Assembly: GCA_017961285.1 (NCBI GenBank)
Contig: JAGCXO010000032.1
Coordinates: 1 to 58,249, forward strand
Reading direction: 5' to 3'
DNA: 58,249 bases
Origin: Alphaproteobacteria bacterium
Lineage (GTDB): Bacteria > Pseudomonadota > Alphaproteobacteria > RF32 > CAG-239
Part shown: positions 5,670 to 44,574 of the stretch, one piece after another
How positions within the stretch are numbered: position 1 is the first letter of the stretch
Layout of the letters: each line of letters starts with the position of its first letter
Made by a program: the position numbers and the translations under genes
The notes under the pieces: model-generated
Databases searched by the model: none
Told to the model about the DNA's origin: nothing
The model's input: only the letters and a program-made list of their open reading frames with translations

Positions 5670-6200
5670 TTAATATTGCAGCTTTTGCACAAAAAAATAT
5701 TCCATAACCGAGAAAATACCATAAACTATGACATATAATCCTATTATGGTGCTAATTGTCAGAACTCCGATGAATGGATATGCCAAAATTAGGAATGAAA
5801 ACAAAATCCCGATGATTCCGGTGGCAAGACTCCATACCCATGGCAACTGTATTTGGTGCAAACGATAGGCGCCGACAGACTGGATGACACCTATGGATAA
5901 GCACCCAATTGCAAATATAATCGGCAGAGTGGCGGCGGTTACTCCAAGATTGGTAACAAAAATAATGCCGATAAAAACATCCAATATACCTACAAAAAGT
6001 TCCCATCCGGACTGGAAAGAAAATGAGGTTACAATATAACCAATTCCGGCGATAATAAAAGCTATGCCTATGTAGAGCACCAATGCAAGCAGACTTGCCA
6101 ACGGATTTAGAATTATGAAAAATCCTAAAATTGTCATAATGATACCGATACACATGCGCCAAAACAGGATTTTTTTGATCGTTTGTTCTTTTTCAAGCAT
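5670..6200 (-). CDS. HdeD/DUF308 family membrane protein
   Basis: Repeated GIxxxILGxxxxxNP hydrophobic hairpins; about 6 TM segments. Confidence 0.8.
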   Translation of the reverse strand: MLEKEQTIKKILFWRMCIGIIMTILGFFIILNPLASLLALVLYIGIAFIIAGIGYIVTSFSFQSGWELFVGILDVFIGIIFVTNLGVTAATLPIIFAIGCLSIGVIQSVGAYRLHQIQLPWVWSLATGIIGILFSFLILAYPFIGVLTISTIIGLYVIVYGIFSVMEYFFVQKLQY

Positions 6201-6282
6201 ATTTATACCTCCTTATATATGTTGCTTTGAATAATATATAAGCATTTTTCAGGTGAGTTTTAGGAGGTGAGATTAAAAAAAT

Positions 6283-7002
6283 TTATAAGCCGCCATCCGG
6301 ATCATATGGTTTTTCATAATCGTCTTGATCTGATGAATTGTCTTGATAAGTCGGCCTGCTCTGCCGCTGAGGATATTGTGGTTGATAATATTGCGGCGAA
6401 TAATGCTGTGGAGGATATTGATATTGTTGCTGAGGATATTGCGGTTGCGAATATTGTTGATTTGCTTCCATTTCTCGCTGTTTTTGCTGTTTTAACATTT
6501 CTTCTTCTTGTTTGAGACCATAAATTGCATTAATCACCGTATCGCGAAATTCACGCGGTCTGTTAATGTCTTCAATATAAATTCGACTTTCGTCGTTGCC
6601 AACCTGAATGGCAACATCGGCCGCACCGAACAAGCGTTGGATTATGGATTGGGAAATCTGGACATCGTTTATCTGGGCAAGAGGTATATCTTTTTCTCTA
6701 ATATTGATGATACCGCGTCTGATATACACTCTTTGGTTGGTAACGGCATATATTTTGAGACGATTATCTATCCTTTTGTATATATAAGGAATTAAGAGGC
6801 AAAGACCTCCGACAATGGAAAGCGTTGTCAGCTTAAAGTTTTTGCCGAGCCAACTCACGGTTAAACCATTTACCGCGCCGGTGAATACCATCAAGAAAAG
6901 GATGATGGCTATCGACATAAACAACATGGGCAACACAAAAACTTTATAGCTGAAGTGAACCTCAATTTTTACATATTCGTTTGCTCTTAATATCTGCGAC
7001 AT
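6283..7002 (-). CDS. Bacterial PH-domain (bPH_2) membrane protein with Q/Y/P-rich tail
   Basis: Two TM segments, then YAVTNQRVYIRRGII..IPLAQINDVQISQSIIQRLFGAADV. Confidence 0.8.
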   Translation of the reverse strand: MSQILRANEYVKIEVHFSYKVFVLPMLFMSIAIILFLMVFTGAVNGLTVSWLGKNFKLTTLSIVGGLCLLIPYIYKRIDNRLKIYAVTNQRVYIRRGIINIREKDIPLAQINDVQISQSIIQRLFGAADVAIQVGNDESRIYIEDINRPREFRDTVINAIYGLKQEEEMLKQQKQREMEANQQYSQPQYPQQQYQYPPQHYSPQYYQPQYPQRQSRPTYQDNSSDQDDYEKPYDPDGGL

Positions 7003-7156
7003 ACGGCTGCCCTCTATATAACATTTATTTGATTATAAAATATTTTTTTTATTAACGCAATAATTTTGACTTATTTTTATATTATGTTATGATAAAAGCA
7101 AAAAAAATGAACTTTGAAACCATTATTTTCGTTTTAGACCTTGTAAGGAGGTTGTT

Positions 7157-7408
7157 ATGGATAAAATTTCGGAACTGCTGAGGGAAGCAAAGCCCTTATA
7201 TTTGAAACGCAAGCGCAGACGCAACCAGATGAAAATTGCTTTTACCGCTGTTGTGGCCGCGTTTATGTTTTTGGTTGTAATGCCGCAAAATATATCTCTT
7301 AGAGATGGTGGACAGTGGCTTGATTATGAACAATATATCTCCGCCGGTTCATCTATTGAGGATATGGGGCTGCCGGTTGATGAATATGGGTTGTTGATGG
7401 TCAGCTGA
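7157..7408 (+). CDS. Small single-TM protein, putative anti-sigma factor
   Basis: Basic N-terminus, one TM segment; TGATG overlap with the ECF sigma gene. Confidence 0.5.
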   Translation: MDKISELLREAKPLYLKRKRRRNQMKIAFTAVVAAFMFLVVMPQNISLRDGGQWLDYEQYISAGSSIEDMGLPVDEYGLLMVS

Positions 7409-42272: not shown

Positions 42273-42301
42273 AGTTTATGTGTATTTAATATCAAAGTCA
42301 A
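42273..42301 (-). promoter_or_regulatory. Sigma70-like promoter of element 2
   Basis: TTGACT-N17-TAAACT. Confidence 0.65.
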
Positions 42302-42512
42302 TAAAATTATCAAAGTATAAGGTAGTTGTTCTATCCAGCCTGCTAAGATCGACAAATATTGGTTTATCGACAACTTTTTCCGGTTTATAGGGTTCAGCCC
42401 AGCAGCGACAGTTGTAATCTTCCCCTGGGTTGCCACCTTCTGGGGGAATATGTTTGTTAAATATTTTTCCTTCGCGGGCTTTGTGGCTGGGGCGGACTTT
42501 GTCATCGTCTTT
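42276..42512 (-). pseudogene. Phage MuF (SPP1 gp7/Mu gpF-like) head-protein domain fragment
   Basis: Manual translation: KDDDKVRPSHKAREGKIFNKHIPPEGGNPGEDYNCRCWAEPY; no start codon, in-frame stop just upstream; not in the ORF track. Confidence 0.85.
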
Positions 42513-42556
42513 GTAACGCGGGTCTATTAGCTTTTACTATGACACAGCTTATAAAT

Positions 42557-42673
42557 TTATATCATTTGCAAAAAAACAGCTAGAAACCACAGTGAAGATA
42601 AAAAAATACATTTTGCAATCAATGGATGGTTACGCATATTACTTGTTCCGATTAAAAATAGAAGTAAAAAAAT
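42557..42673 (-). pseudogene. 3' fragment of a small two-TM membrane (immunity-like) gene
   Basis: IFLLLFLIGTSNMRNHPLIAKCIFLSSLWFLAVFLQMI begins at the point where the upstream Tlde1-like similarity ends. Confidence 0.4.
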
Positions 42674-42950
42674 TTGGCCCTTTGTTGGCAATATTTTGGT
42701 ATTGGGCACTTTGAAAATCTGGTTGTCCAGACATCGCATCTAAATTAGCTACCTGTCCGTTATTATTATGCAATCCCAAATTTTGCCCATCAAAAGTCAT
42801 ATAACAGTTTGGATCATTAGATGTTGGTTGCAGTTGACTTGACGTCTGCATATTCTTAATATTGCTTCCGATATTAGAAGTTCCAAAGCCGTAGTTATTA
42901 TCCGCATTAGTTCCCCAAAAGTTGGTTGTATACTGTGGATAGTTTGTCAT
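42639..42950 (-). pseudogene. Orphan toxin-tip cassette: shared repeat plus truncated DUF2778/Tlde1-like domain
   Basis: First 36 aa duplicate part of 43193-44017; then YMTFDGQNL..AMSGQPDFQSAQYQNIANKGP, truncated at the GP motif; ATGA overlap with the upstream gene. Confidence 0.65.
42843..42942. repeat. 100-bp direct repeat, copy 2
   Basis: 98/100 identical to 43739-43838. Confidence 0.97.
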
Positions 42951-43126
42951 TCCATCATTCGCAGTTCAACCCACGTTTGTTTACACCAATCTTTCGTTTT
43001 TCCTGATAATATACATTCATTAACATATTCATGTTTTAGATAGACTTCAAATAGAAACAGTAATACTAAATAAATTACAGGTATTGCTAATACGACAAGT
43101 AAGCTCTTAAAAATTTTCTTTTTCAT
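42947..43126 (-). CDS. Small single-TM protein, putative immunity protein
   Basis: MKKKIFKSLLVVLAIPVIYLVLLFLF..ECILSGKTKDWCK; GAGGG SD; directly follows the putative toxin gene. Confidence 0.6.
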   Translation of the reverse strand: MKKKIFKSLLVVLAIPVIYLVLLFLFEVYLKHEYVNECILSGKTKDWCKQTWVELRMME

Positions 43127-43192
43127 GCGTCCCTCAAATATTAAGATATGACGAGCATTATATAAATAAATGCTCATCATATCAATATCAAT

Positions 43193-44017
43193 TTATTTAA
43201 TGCCTAGCTTTCGCATATTTGGCGTTCTTCTATCATCAAGTAAATCCTCGCAACTTGTATTCGGATTATAATATCCTAGATTACTACCATAAAGATTATT
43301 TTGCAAATCTTTTTGACTATCTTCCATGATTTCATCATGACTCTGTCCTGTAATTCTTTTAACTGGATAATCCATAAGGTATTCTTTAGCATAGCCAAGT
43401 GCTATACCATTTCTTCTGCTCTTAGGACTAATTTTGGCAAGTTCACACTGCAAAAGAGGATGATAATAATTATCTATATCCGCACCTTGACCGGAGCCAA
43501 AAGTTTTTACGAGTTGGTTTCCTGTTTGTTTCATTTTTTTCCAATAATCATATGCTATTTTTGTATCAGCCGCTAGTTCTCCTAAATTTTCTCTAGCTTT
43601 CCTAATTTGTTCCGGTATAGACATTATACCATTTACAGCGGTATTTCCCCACTGTTTAACCGTATTCCAAGCACTGCTTTCCGGTTGTTGAGAAACCTGA
43701 GGTTGAACAGGTTGAGGTTGTTGCGGAACAGGTGCCATCGTCTGCATATTCTTAATATTGCTTCCGATATTAGAAGTTCCAAAGCCGTAGTTATTATCCG
43801 CATTAGTTCTCCAAAAGTTGGTTGTATACTGCGGATAGGTCGTTATCCCCTGATTATTCATCTTCGTCATCAGGTCATTTTCTCGGTTAACTCGTGCCGT
43901 TTGATATGCTAACTCATCACGCGTCGTAAACCCAGAGTGATCAACACCATAGGTGTCAATCGGATTACCGTTGCTTGCATACCCCAACGGCGAGGTGTAC
44001 TGTTTCCAAAAGCTCAT
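43193..44017 (-). CDS. Putative polymorphic toxin: novel N-terminal domain, P/Q linker, serum-amyloid-A-like tip
   Basis: GGAGGT SD; GADIDNYYH..CELAK..AKE..DSQKDLQNNLYG resembles SAA GADKYFH..DAAQ..ARE..DSLADQAANEWG. Confidence 0.6.
   Translation of the reverse strand: MSFWKQYTSPLGYASNGNPIDTYGVDHSGFTTRDELAYQTARVNRENDLMTKMNNQGITTYPQYTTNFWRTNADNNYGFGTSNIGSNIKNMQTMAPVPQQPQPVQPQVSQQPESSAWNTVKQWGNTAVNGIMSIPEQIRKARENLGELAADTKIAYDYWKKMKQTGNQLVKTFGSGQGADIDNYYHPLLQCELAKISPKSRRNGIALGYAKEYLMDYPVKRITGQSHDEIMEDSQKDLQNNLYGSNLGYYNPNTSCEDLLDDRRTPNMRKLGIK
43739..43838. repeat. 100-bp direct repeat, copy 1
   Basis: Encodes YPQYTTNFWRTNADNNYGFGTSNIGSNIKNMQT. Confidence 0.97.
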
Positions 44018-44094
44018 TTTATACCTCCTTTGTTGACAATTATAGTAAACAGTATTTTACTACTATCACAAAAAGGAATCAGCGTCTATCCGCC

Positions 44095-44126
44095 ATAGTT
44101 AGCAAGGTTCTAGCTATAGTTAGCAA
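44095..44126. repeat. Short direct repeat ATAGTTAGCAA x2 (21-bp period)
   Basis: Copies at 44095-44105 and 44116-44126, across the stop of the upstream gene. Confidence 0.7.
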
Positions 44127-44574
44127 AAGCTTTTTTAAATTCTCGATTGTTGGCTTGGGCTAATTGATTGAGCTTGTTTTCTATGTTTGTATTTTTATAC
44201 GGAATATCCACAGTTTTAGCTTTATTCTTAAGAAACCAGATAACAAAAGCTCTTGCTGAAAGAGTTTTTCCTGATTTTTGATATTCCTTAAAATGCCGAT
44301 ATTGCAAATTCTTAAAATAATCCCTAAACGGAGCGTATTTTTTATCGCGCTGTTTACCGCGATTTATTGCTTGTTGCTTTCTATCTATTTTTATGGCTGC
44401 ATCAGTGCTTGTTGCACGCATTTCACACCATTCTTCTCTGCTTTCGGCTTGCATCTCTTTTGCCCATGCGATTATTTCTTGTTGTAATTTCTTGTTTTTG
44501 AGCAACTCTTTATTATGTATAAACAAACTATTTAATTTGCGCAAGGACTCGCCGGGTATAGTTTCTTCTTCCAT
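44110..44574 (-). CDS. Hypothetical basic helical protein
   Basis: 154-aa ORF with AGGA SD; no family recognised. Confidence 0.6.
   Translation of the reverse strand: MEEETIPGESLRKLNSLFIHNKELLKNKKLQQEIIAWAKEMQAESREEWCEMRATSTDAAIKIDRKQQAINRGKQRDKKYAPFRDYFKNLQYRHFKEYQKSGKTLSARAFVIWFLKNKAKTVDIPYKNTNIENKLNQLAQANNREFKKAFANYS

Follow-up and report, generated by a model that had tools for sequence, protein, structure and literature searches.

Which kind of protein begins with a domain that no searched library recognises, ends in a part that differs between its relatives, and is followed by a small membrane gene, by a partial copy of its own middle and by a fragment of a phage head gene, and how might such a protein reach its target? 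These questions are raised by a locus on the minus strand (42276-44574) of contig JAGCXO010000032.1 (assembly GCA_017961285.1), which comes from an alphaproteobacterium of the order RF32. The whole stretch of 58,249 nucleotides that was analysed is called the window here. An original prediction, made from the letters of the window, had proposed a new polymorphic toxin system. All elements that it listed are present, namely an open reading frame (ORF) of 274 amino acids (aa), a transmembrane (TM) protein of 59 aa, the ATGA overlap that starts the next ORF, a repeat of 98 out of 100 nt, a hydrophobic gene fragment and a MuF fragment (Table 1). Our analysis indicates that the locus is very probably a single array of cassettes from a family of polymorphic antibacterial toxins with a lineage-restricted distribution; here the 59-aa immunity gene, a spare Tlde1 cassette and a MuF relic accompany the complete toxin gene.

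A constant head with variable tips

The identification as a polymorphic toxin follows from four features, namely a constant N-terminal head, about 36 tip clusters, co-variation of tips and immunity genes, and spare cassettes with a shared junction. The head comprises the first 93 residues (N-domain) of the 274-aa protein, whose N-terminus is polar and lacks a signal peptide. Its conserved core, as read from alignments, is (I/V)D(S/T)YGVDHSGF(S/T)xRDE(L/I)xYQxAR .. YPQYxTNFWG .. NNYGFG. Modelled alone, the first 97 residues (53 sequences) reached a predicted local distance difference test (pLDDT) value of 80.6 and a predicted TM-score (pTM) of 0.73; in the model, an extended N-terminal stretch is accompanied by a long helix (32-55) and a pair of short ones. 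As originally claimed, the domain is unrecognised: it had no match in Pfam, NCBIfam, PHROGs or PDB sequences, and Foldseek returned none among PDB folds and two in BFVD, both with an E value of at least 2. Scans of all eight local ORFs against Pfam, NCBIfam and PHROGs gave no significant match, and Pfam found no MuF domain (PF04233) in the 274-aa toxin. A full-length AlphaFold2 (AF2) model (80-sequence alignment) has a partly confident N-terminal region, disordered residues 92-143 (pLDDT <50) and a confident helical bundle; length and composition of the linker vary among homologues. DHSGF in the core resembles the TolB-box DGSGW, a likeness on which we did not rely, as the head is folded.

Searching 5.8 billion proteins with the toxin retrieved 332 homologues. 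Among the best 120 of these, 55 share head and tip, 25 carry the head with another tip and 40 share the tip only. Homologues that always carry the same C-terminus, an outcome named beforehand as contradicting the prediction, were thus not what was found. The window tip in turn is attached to at least six other short N-termini. A profile of the head, run against 1.84 billion representatives, matched 277 proteins, which are cluster representatives; in the 150 of the 277 matches that were listed, the head takes up the N-terminus or a place very close to it (residues 1-94), in proteins of 60-600 aa. In genome scans it occurs in 114 of the 283 genomes of the order and in seven of its 24 genera, with 1-18 matches each, and in one of 400 other genomes sampled across the class. 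Its identity across genera is 50-90%. The genome of the window (1.2 Mb, 51 contigs) contains 12 matches on five contigs. The unrelated C-termini that had been expected on a constant N-domain were found when the last 130 residues were clustered, which yielded 36 tip clusters; this procedure replaced a first single-linkage clustering that had lumped 121 tips via shared linkers.

Small downstream genes, likewise anticipated, encode membrane proteins or lipoproteins that co-vary with the tip. Within the window's genome the same tip is always found with the same partner. For instance, an SAA tip ('DNFFHCKANYEAAKRG', SAA-B; the copies on contigs C5 and C7 are 73% identical) pairs with a 123-aa multi-TM protein (78%), a pesticin-like tip (69% identical copies) with a convergent lipoprotein (36%), and another SAA tip ('DDYFHCKGNYEAAQRG', SAA-C) with a TM protein bearing a four-Cys domain, an immunity domain already described for prok-SAA and Min-Wnt toxins (PMC12419801). 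The window tip itself was found in seven loci of different genomes. Three of the seven were paired by script with the TM/two-Cys family to which the 59-aa protein belongs, and at two further loci a member of this family overlaps the toxin end (coordinates read by eye); of the rest, one has a different small TM/two-Cys gene and one region contains Ns. In the window, the start of the 59-aa gene lies 13 nt past the toxin stop; the ORF has 59 aa from an internal Met and 77 aa if 43180 is its start. The same gene was called in the loci L093 and L009. Measured by the features that define polymorphic toxins (Zhang et al. 2012), variable tips, spare cassettes and, as co-variation only, a downstream co-varying gene are present, and a recognisable trafficking domain or cognate secretion system is lacking.

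The spare cassette is tied to the toxin gene by its sequence. A repeat search of the window detected a direct repeat of 117 nt with 93% identity, and in a pairwise alignment of 42843-42942 with 43739-43838 exactly 98 of 100 bases are identical. The repeat encodes N-domain residues ~60-93, and identity is lost right after the '..NMQT' codons. The third ORF, the ATG of which shares the sequence ATGA with the TM gene's stop, comprises N-domain residues 55-95 and the first ~50 residues of a Tlde1 tip; it ends after 'KGP' and shares 89% identity with P0085, an N-domain::Tlde1 protein, over residues 55-149 of the latter. In L093, a locus from an independent assembly of a close relative (GCA_045593845.1), the same order of mutS, PPIase, lipoprotein, regulator, toxin, immunity and orphan genes was found. 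There, the orphan is intact and consists of a 203-aa Tlde1 ORF (PF10908) followed by a 107-aa membrane immunity gene. A blastn comparison revealed that the window lacks a single segment of 629 bp (L093 7345-7973, junction 42673/42674), a deletion that fuses the broken Tlde1 tip to the last third of its immunity gene. Thus, the proposed orphan cassette does share its junction with the toxin N-domain, but the copy in the window is a deletion remnant and unusable as it stands. Through homology of the kind seen in the 100-nt junction repeat, a spare tip can take the place of the expressed one.

Could the array be something else? That repeat and cassettes are an assembly artefact, or the ORFs a product of chance, can practically be dismissed: the genome is a metagenome-assembled genome (MAG) of 51 contigs, and contigs often break at these repeats, but the same arrangement is present in the independent assembly GCA_045593845.1 and hundreds of homologues are under purifying selection. 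MAG contigs often end few kb from the lysis end of a podovirus-like element that is described below, or inside MuF or N-domain heads (L054, L055, L057-L060, L066; L096, L099, L100, L105). As contigs end at cassettes, the true cassette copy numbers are probably underestimated in assemblies. It is also improbable that the proteins are no inter-bacterial toxins but accessory lysis or virion-associated peptidoglycan hydrolases of this element, with the small membrane genes as holins or spanins. A repertoire of GH108, SLT, lysozyme and L,D-peptidase-like domains is indeed that of endolysins and virion hydrolases, and arrays are placed after holin and endolysin genes. Up to 18 copies per genome, however, argue against this role, as do tip-specific partners, among them lipoproteins of 150-170 aa encoded on the other strand and periplasmic, Cys-rich domains that belong to the described Lipocone immunity type. 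Moreover, start-less or truncated spare cassettes share the junction, and many loci lie in housekeeping regions.

Tips probably directed at the cell envelope

The tips differ between cassettes, as had been predicted; the window tip itself is of a known type. Profile comparison and modelling place it in the prok-SAA branch of the Lipocone superfamily. In the AF2 model the tip has pLDDT values of 82-97. The top six Foldseek matches are all SAA (SAA3 6pxz and SAA1 4ip8 among them), with probabilities of 0.99-1.0, a TM-score of about 0.67 relative to the target and E values of only 0.07-0.35. The modelled tip was superposable on the SAA four-helix core and a short fifth helix. Pfam gave no direct SAA match for the window tip, and searches of PDB sequences with the tip profile and the whole protein returned nothing. 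Alignment by hhalign to sister tips that do match Pfam SAA resulted in a probability of 98.1% and an E value of 1.3e-13. Invariant motifs of the window tip are DNYYH and NN..GS (N-N-L-Y-G-S); compared with the sNxxGR motif in helix 4 of prok-SAA, the window tip has S in place of R, whereas sister tips read A-N-L-I-G-R. The prok-SAA Lipocone domain has been described as a polymorphic-toxin tip (Burroughs, Nicastro, Aravind, eLife 2025, PMC12419801); according to the prediction of these authors, it acts outside the cytoplasm, where it cleaves head groups of envelope precursors linked to lipid, and membrane or lipoprotein immunity proteins counter it. By analogy, we predict that the window tip acts in the periplasm and cleaves the head group of cell-wall precursors that are linked to lipid. 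The same genome also encodes a stand-alone 137-aa SAA-like protein in a housekeeping context (C23 41125-41538, equal to L020 6125-6538), which lacks the N-domain and is 35% identical to the window tip over about 85 residues.

Other tips on the same head point in a similar direction. A Pfam run on 87 N-domain representatives assigned GH108 to 11 of them, PG_binding_3 to six, Tlde1 to four, and VgrG3-like_C, SAA, YkuD, Pesticin (PF16754), SLT and PG_binding_1 to three each; GH46 and Phage_lysozyme were found once each, and two marginal single matches were to DUF6973 and Glycoamylase. No nuclease, deaminase or ADP-ribosyltransferase tip was detected by Pfam among the 87. Searches of Pfam and PDB with the tip types P0065, P0122, P0056, P0181 and others returned nothing. 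Since the annotated tips act on peptidoglycan or lipid II, we infer that the toxins act in the periplasm of the target, on lipid II or carrier lipid and on peptidoglycan. A tip type with the motif '..NYGLDKIIY(K/R)H..' was observed on N-domain proteins of L094 (5001-6041 and 7129-7716); it has no family match and no recognisable downstream immunity ORF, and may be a different kind of effector.

A podovirus-like element and the possible delivery of the toxins

How toxins without a signal peptide would leave the cell is the second question. TssC, which encodes the sheath of type VI secretion systems (T6SS), was found in none of the 283 genomes of the order, that of the window included, so that the proteins were rejected as T6SS effectors. 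The window's genome has neither VirB4 nor a Plug/TonB-dependent receptor. The flagellar export gate FlhA is present in genera g9, g10, g19 and g22 and was not found in g1 (21 of 29 genomes N-domain positive) nor in the ranges assigned to g20 and g23, all of which are N-domain-rich. Flagellar export as a general route was rejected because FlhA was not found in the N-domain-rich g1 or the range assigned to g20. No transporter or apparatus gene recurs in ~27 N-domain neighbourhoods; only immunity genes and regulator-like genes do.

A check for co-occurring phage-head genes, which had been suggested with the original prediction, did reveal a link, outside the window, in a conserved podovirus-like element. 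In the window's genome, contig C41 (3759-16616; loci L015/L016) carries a ~13-kb cluster of podovirus-like genes for structure and lysis, in which integrase and replication genes are absent. It consists of small and large terminase, a GroES-like gene, a P22-like portal, a putative scaffold, an SU10-like capsid, tail proteins, a GNAT gene, two fibres, a putative holin and a Hydrolase_2 endolysin; the scaffold gene is named by position only, as it has no family match, and the putative holin is likewise without one. The cluster is bordered by N-domain cassettes, three at each end, and the first of them starts 13 nt past the endolysin stop. A CI/LexA-like repressor (HTH_3 and Peptidase_S24; C41 22133-22804, equal to L016 7133-7804) a few kb from element and arrays hints at SOS-type induction. 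The capsid protein is present in 154 of the 283 genomes, almost always as one copy (genera g1, g9, g10, g19, g20, g22 and g23). Its identity is 76-97% within a genus and 65-78% in other genera and tracks taxonomy, and the gene order of the element is conserved in 20 sampled genomes. A single-copy, syntenic capsid gene that tracks taxonomy is the signature of a vertically inherited, domesticated phage-like element. The element thus looks like a domesticated cluster resembling a gene transfer agent (GTA) or a killer particle, of which we found no description in the literature.

Toxin heads and element are associated both in distribution and in position. The capsid gene occurs in 104 of the 114 N-domain genomes, and two of the other ten have the portal. 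The odds ratio of head and capsid is 25 overall and 4.9 within the clade (p 2e-4), values that are uncorrected for phylogeny or completeness. Among 20 elements sampled for linkage, 15 were informative, having at least 11.5 kb available downstream of the capsid gene. In five of these 15, N-domain cassettes follow the capsid gene at a distance of 9-17 kb downstream, on the same strand and at the lysis end, where fewer than one would be expected by chance; in a sixth genome (G238), a divergent partial N-domain match lies at about 4 kb from the capsid gene. The arrangement of a capsid gene followed by a toxin array was also found in the window's genome, G090 and G257 (L009/L037). Of the 20 sampled contigs, seven break off no more than 12 kb from the capsid gene, as repeats at this place would lead one to expect.

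A further connection to phage heads comes from the MuF fragment of the window, which the original prediction had regarded as linked. It matches PF04233 (Phage_Mu_F, positions 73-110 of 112, E 1.1e-6) at 42399-42509, is the only MuF match in the window's genome and has a somewhat longer version in L093. It proved to be the relic of a second head type, here called short MuF, that uses the same pool of tips in the same arrays. MuF is a domain of portal-associated capsid proteins, and its established role is incorporation into capsids through the portal. Relatives of the window relic were found in 38 loci, most of them in MAGs of gut or rumen Alphaproteobacteria. In the 320-500-aa products of intact short-MuF genes, a MuF-like head of ~135 residues is joined through a conserved '..VDLSGLPQYA..' linker to a tip that varies; no intact MuF toxin is present in the window's genome. 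In 21 of 24 short-MuF toxins the tip matches that of an N-domain toxin (pesticin-like, GH108, SLT, VgrG3-C-like or P0132-type) with 24-70% identity, and toxins of both head types share arrays in L097, L106 and L108. At two loci (L116, 3185-4669; L118, ~5750-7400) the head module of the element contains a MuF-headed toxin with a pesticin-like-lysozyme tip, adjacent to the GroES-like gene; that of L116, between the GroES-like and the terminase genes, is followed by the same convergent lipoprotein as the pesticin-like tip on N-domain toxins. An alternative short head on the window tip ('..GESEWYYYDPRG..IDVPSENSPNP..') resembles the first half of the short-MuF head, and a related head in L033 matches positions 5-64 of a hidden Markov model (HMM) of the MuF head with an E value of 1e-7.

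We tentatively favour the reading that the N-domain loads the toxin onto podovirus-like particles, because the tested secretion systems are absent, the annotated tips are all periplasmic, the head is co-distributed and linked with the element, and it is interchangeable with MuF. The head would then serve to load or dock the toxin to a podovirus-like particle that is inherited vertically and present as a single copy. Part of the population would lyse and set free toxin-carrying particles; once attached to a rival, these would eject their cargo into its periplasm, as podoviruses do with their ejection proteins, and kin would survive by carrying the immunity protein. The MuF head would be an interchangeable, ancestral way of loading the same tips. 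With somewhat greater reserve we put forward that a GTA-like particle may be the vehicle for cell-wall toxins via two interchangeable heads, the short MuF and the 93-residue one, and thus a 'killer GTA' for kin discrimination in gut Alphaproteobacteria that lack a T6SS.

A number of observations weigh against this picture. The proposed link between head and particle comes from genomic linkage and from co-distribution, and the co-distribution of head and element reflects the clade to a large extent. N-domain genes are present and both capsid and portal are missing in five fairly complete genomes, among them G086 and G101, both 100% complete, which lack the endolysin as well; conversely, 50 genomes have the element without N-domain genes. 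Most cassettes, those of the window included, are located in housekeeping neighbourhoods far from the element, several with their own upstream regulator-like gene. In our searches the head had no sequence or fold similarity to MuF, to a known capsid or to an ejection protein; the MuF-head HMM detected no MuF toxin in the 20 sampled elements, and no relative of the N-domain was found in 2.9 million IMG/VR viral contigs. As to the toxins themselves, about 40% of the tips are without annotation and the tip type P0076 has no obvious immunity gene.

The main rival to particle loading is a free, colicin-like bacteriocin, released when the holin and endolysin of the element, or some other lysis event, break open part of the population. 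Its N-domain would attach to a conserved component of the target's outer membrane or Tol-Pal system and bring the tip through the outer membrane, in the manner of colicin M and pesticin. Small proteins without a signal peptide that are modular at both ends and directly followed by an immunity gene would fit this description. Lipid II, which colicin M attacks, and murein, which pesticin attacks, are also the predicted targets of the tips, and matches to PF16754 Pesticin occur. Arrays directly after the lysis cassette, the CI/LexA-like S24 repressor beside the element, tolQ/R/A-like ORFs on C41 (read by eye), the dispersed cassettes, several with their own regulator-like gene, and the genomes that have N-domain genes and no element are all compatible with it. 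However, the window's genome has no TonB-dependent receptor, so that the route of colicin M and pesticin would be closed for kin targets. Furthermore, the head is a compact folded domain and not an unstructured Tol- or Ton-box translocation domain, its identity across genera is above that usual for receptor-binding domains, and there is no separate receptor-binding domain between head and tip, where the linker is disordered. We rate a free bacteriocin as somewhat less probable than particle loading. Less probable still is an N-domain that serves as export or recognition signal for an unrecognised pathway or one that was not searched here, such as an ABC exporter of the type I secretion system, a holin-dependent 'type 10'-like non-lytic route or vesicles; proximity to the element would then merely reflect the usual accumulation of cargo at prophage ends. 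The position of the head at the extreme N-terminus, the absence of all known systems tested and the genomes with toxins and without the element would agree with an export signal, but no transporter or apparatus gene recurs in the neighbourhoods and 94 folded residues are long for a leader peptide.

Neighbouring genes and known systems

The features of the locus are collected in Table 1. The co-oriented gene upstream of the toxin gene probably encodes a cassette regulator. Its family is the most recurrent non-toxin neighbour (8 of ~27 N-domain loci), mostly directly upstream of the toxin gene, and shares the C-terminal motif RDKKYAPFREYFK..NNREFKK. Long forms of the family have weak, sub-threshold matches to HTH_19/HTH_3 (XRE-type helix-turn-helix); the window copy is a short form and has no Pfam match. 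Five paralogous toxin genes of the same genome are preceded by a conserved GC-rich hairpin with a T-run (GGAGCC-loop-GGCTCC TTTTTTT), ~10 nt before the ribosome-binding site (GGGAGAA). These hairpins are located upstream of 5451 on C5, of 4423 on C7 and of 2749, 18010 and 20889 on C41. A weaker terminator-like hairpin is found at the same place before the toxin gene of the window (44080-44095). Hairpins in this position suggest control by read-through or antitermination.

Table 1. Features of the toxin locus in the window (coordinates of the whole stretch)
Feature	Position	Strand	Evidence
Complete toxin gene, 274 aa (N-domain, P/Q linker and SAA-like tip)	43193..44017	-	ORF call, 332 homologues, AF2 model
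New N-terminal domain, residues 1-93	43739..44017	-	Alignments, model, null family and fold searches
Disordered Pro/Gln-rich linker, residues about 94-135	43613..43738	-	Low pLDDT, variable among homologues
Toxin tip, predicted prok-SAA (Lipocone) helical bundle	43196..43612	-	AF2, Foldseek, hhalign
Immunity gene, 59 aa, N-terminal TM helix and short two-Cys periplasmic tail (predicted)	42947..43126	-	
Spare (orphan) cassette remnant, end of N-domain and first third of Tlde1 tip, 103 aa	42639..42950	-	
Junction repeat, 98/100 identical to 43739-43838; putative tip-exchange recombination site	42843..42942	not assigned	
C-terminal remnant (last third) of the immunity gene of the Tlde1 cassette, hydrophobic	42557..42673	-	blastn against L093
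Start-less 'short MuF' toxin-head relic, 85 codons: C-terminus of MuF core and beginning of conserved linker	42276..42533	-	
Upstream co-oriented putative cassette regulator, basic, 154 aa	44110..44574	-	Recurrent N-domain neighbour

With this family, known polymorphic toxins would gain a new delivery head, in bacteria without the tested secretion systems. Pairing of this head only with cell-wall-directed tips, among those annotated, would constrain the route to end in the periplasm. The tie to a particle and the equivalence with MuF make it testable whether and how phage-head-associated toxins reach their targets. The toxins are compact fusions that occur in nature, contain Tlde1, VgrG3-type, GH108, pesticin-like and SAA-like domains and come with immunity proteins to match; they should be useful for studies of the attack on lipid II and peptidoglycan and help to explain how the abundant, uncultured Alphaproteobacteria of gut and rumen compete.

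Parts of the system are already known. SAA-like polymorphic toxin tips were published in 2025, and phage-linked polymorphic toxins have been described as MuF (PMC5576092) and Bxa (PMC11699363). What appears to be new is the 93-residue head, which by our searches is in none of the libraries and is unmentioned in the text of the Lipocone paper, together with its restriction to envelope tips and its tie to the podovirus-like element, for which no description was found in the literature. The text of that paper (PMC12419801) lists type IV, VI, VII and IX secretion systems, MuF, cystatin-like and other heads, and not this one; the fold and motifs of the tip and the TM-anchored or lipoprotein immunity proteins including the four-Cys domain are alike, whereas the 59-aa two-Cys immunity protein is not among its types.

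With the Rhs, CdiA-CT and MafB systems (Zhang et al. 2012, PMC3482391) the family shares a conserved N-terminus, hypervariable tips, downstream immunity genes and spare tip-plus-immunity cassettes that keep a stretch of the junction. In contrast to these, the head has only 93 residues and is unrelated to the catalogued trafficking domains, T5, T6 and T7 systems are absent, and the annotated tips are all envelope-acting. Colicin M and pesticin are similar in size, in the lack of a signal peptide, in their targets lipid II and murein and in their membrane-anchored or periplasmic immunity proteins, but the genome examined here has no TonB-dependent receptors, the head has no unstructured N-terminus of the TonB-box type, and the genes are chromosomal and present in many copies. 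The T6SS effector Tlde1 and the C-terminal domain of VgrG3 belong to the same catalytic families as tips found on the N-domain, in an order without the T6SS sheath gene.

The closest parallels are phage-linked. MuF toxins of temperate phages (Jamet et al. 2017, PMC5576092; PMC12226406) also lack a signal peptide, and within the clade they have tips, immunity genes and arrays in common with the N-domain toxins. Compared with the described MuF toxins, the window holds a MuF relic of only 38 positions, the local heads are short (about 135 aa), and the tips are peptidoglycan hydrolases and not the typical cytoplasmic enzymes. The Bxa-type toxins of Bacteroidaceae (Alexei et al. 2024, PMC11699363) likewise come from the gut, are linked to prophages and combine diverse tips with a conserved N-terminal domain whose role in trafficking is unknown. 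Their head is unrelated, and whereas Bxa is an ADP-ribosyltransferase acting in the cytoplasm, the toxins presented here have predicted periplasmic tips and are associated with a vertically inherited element.

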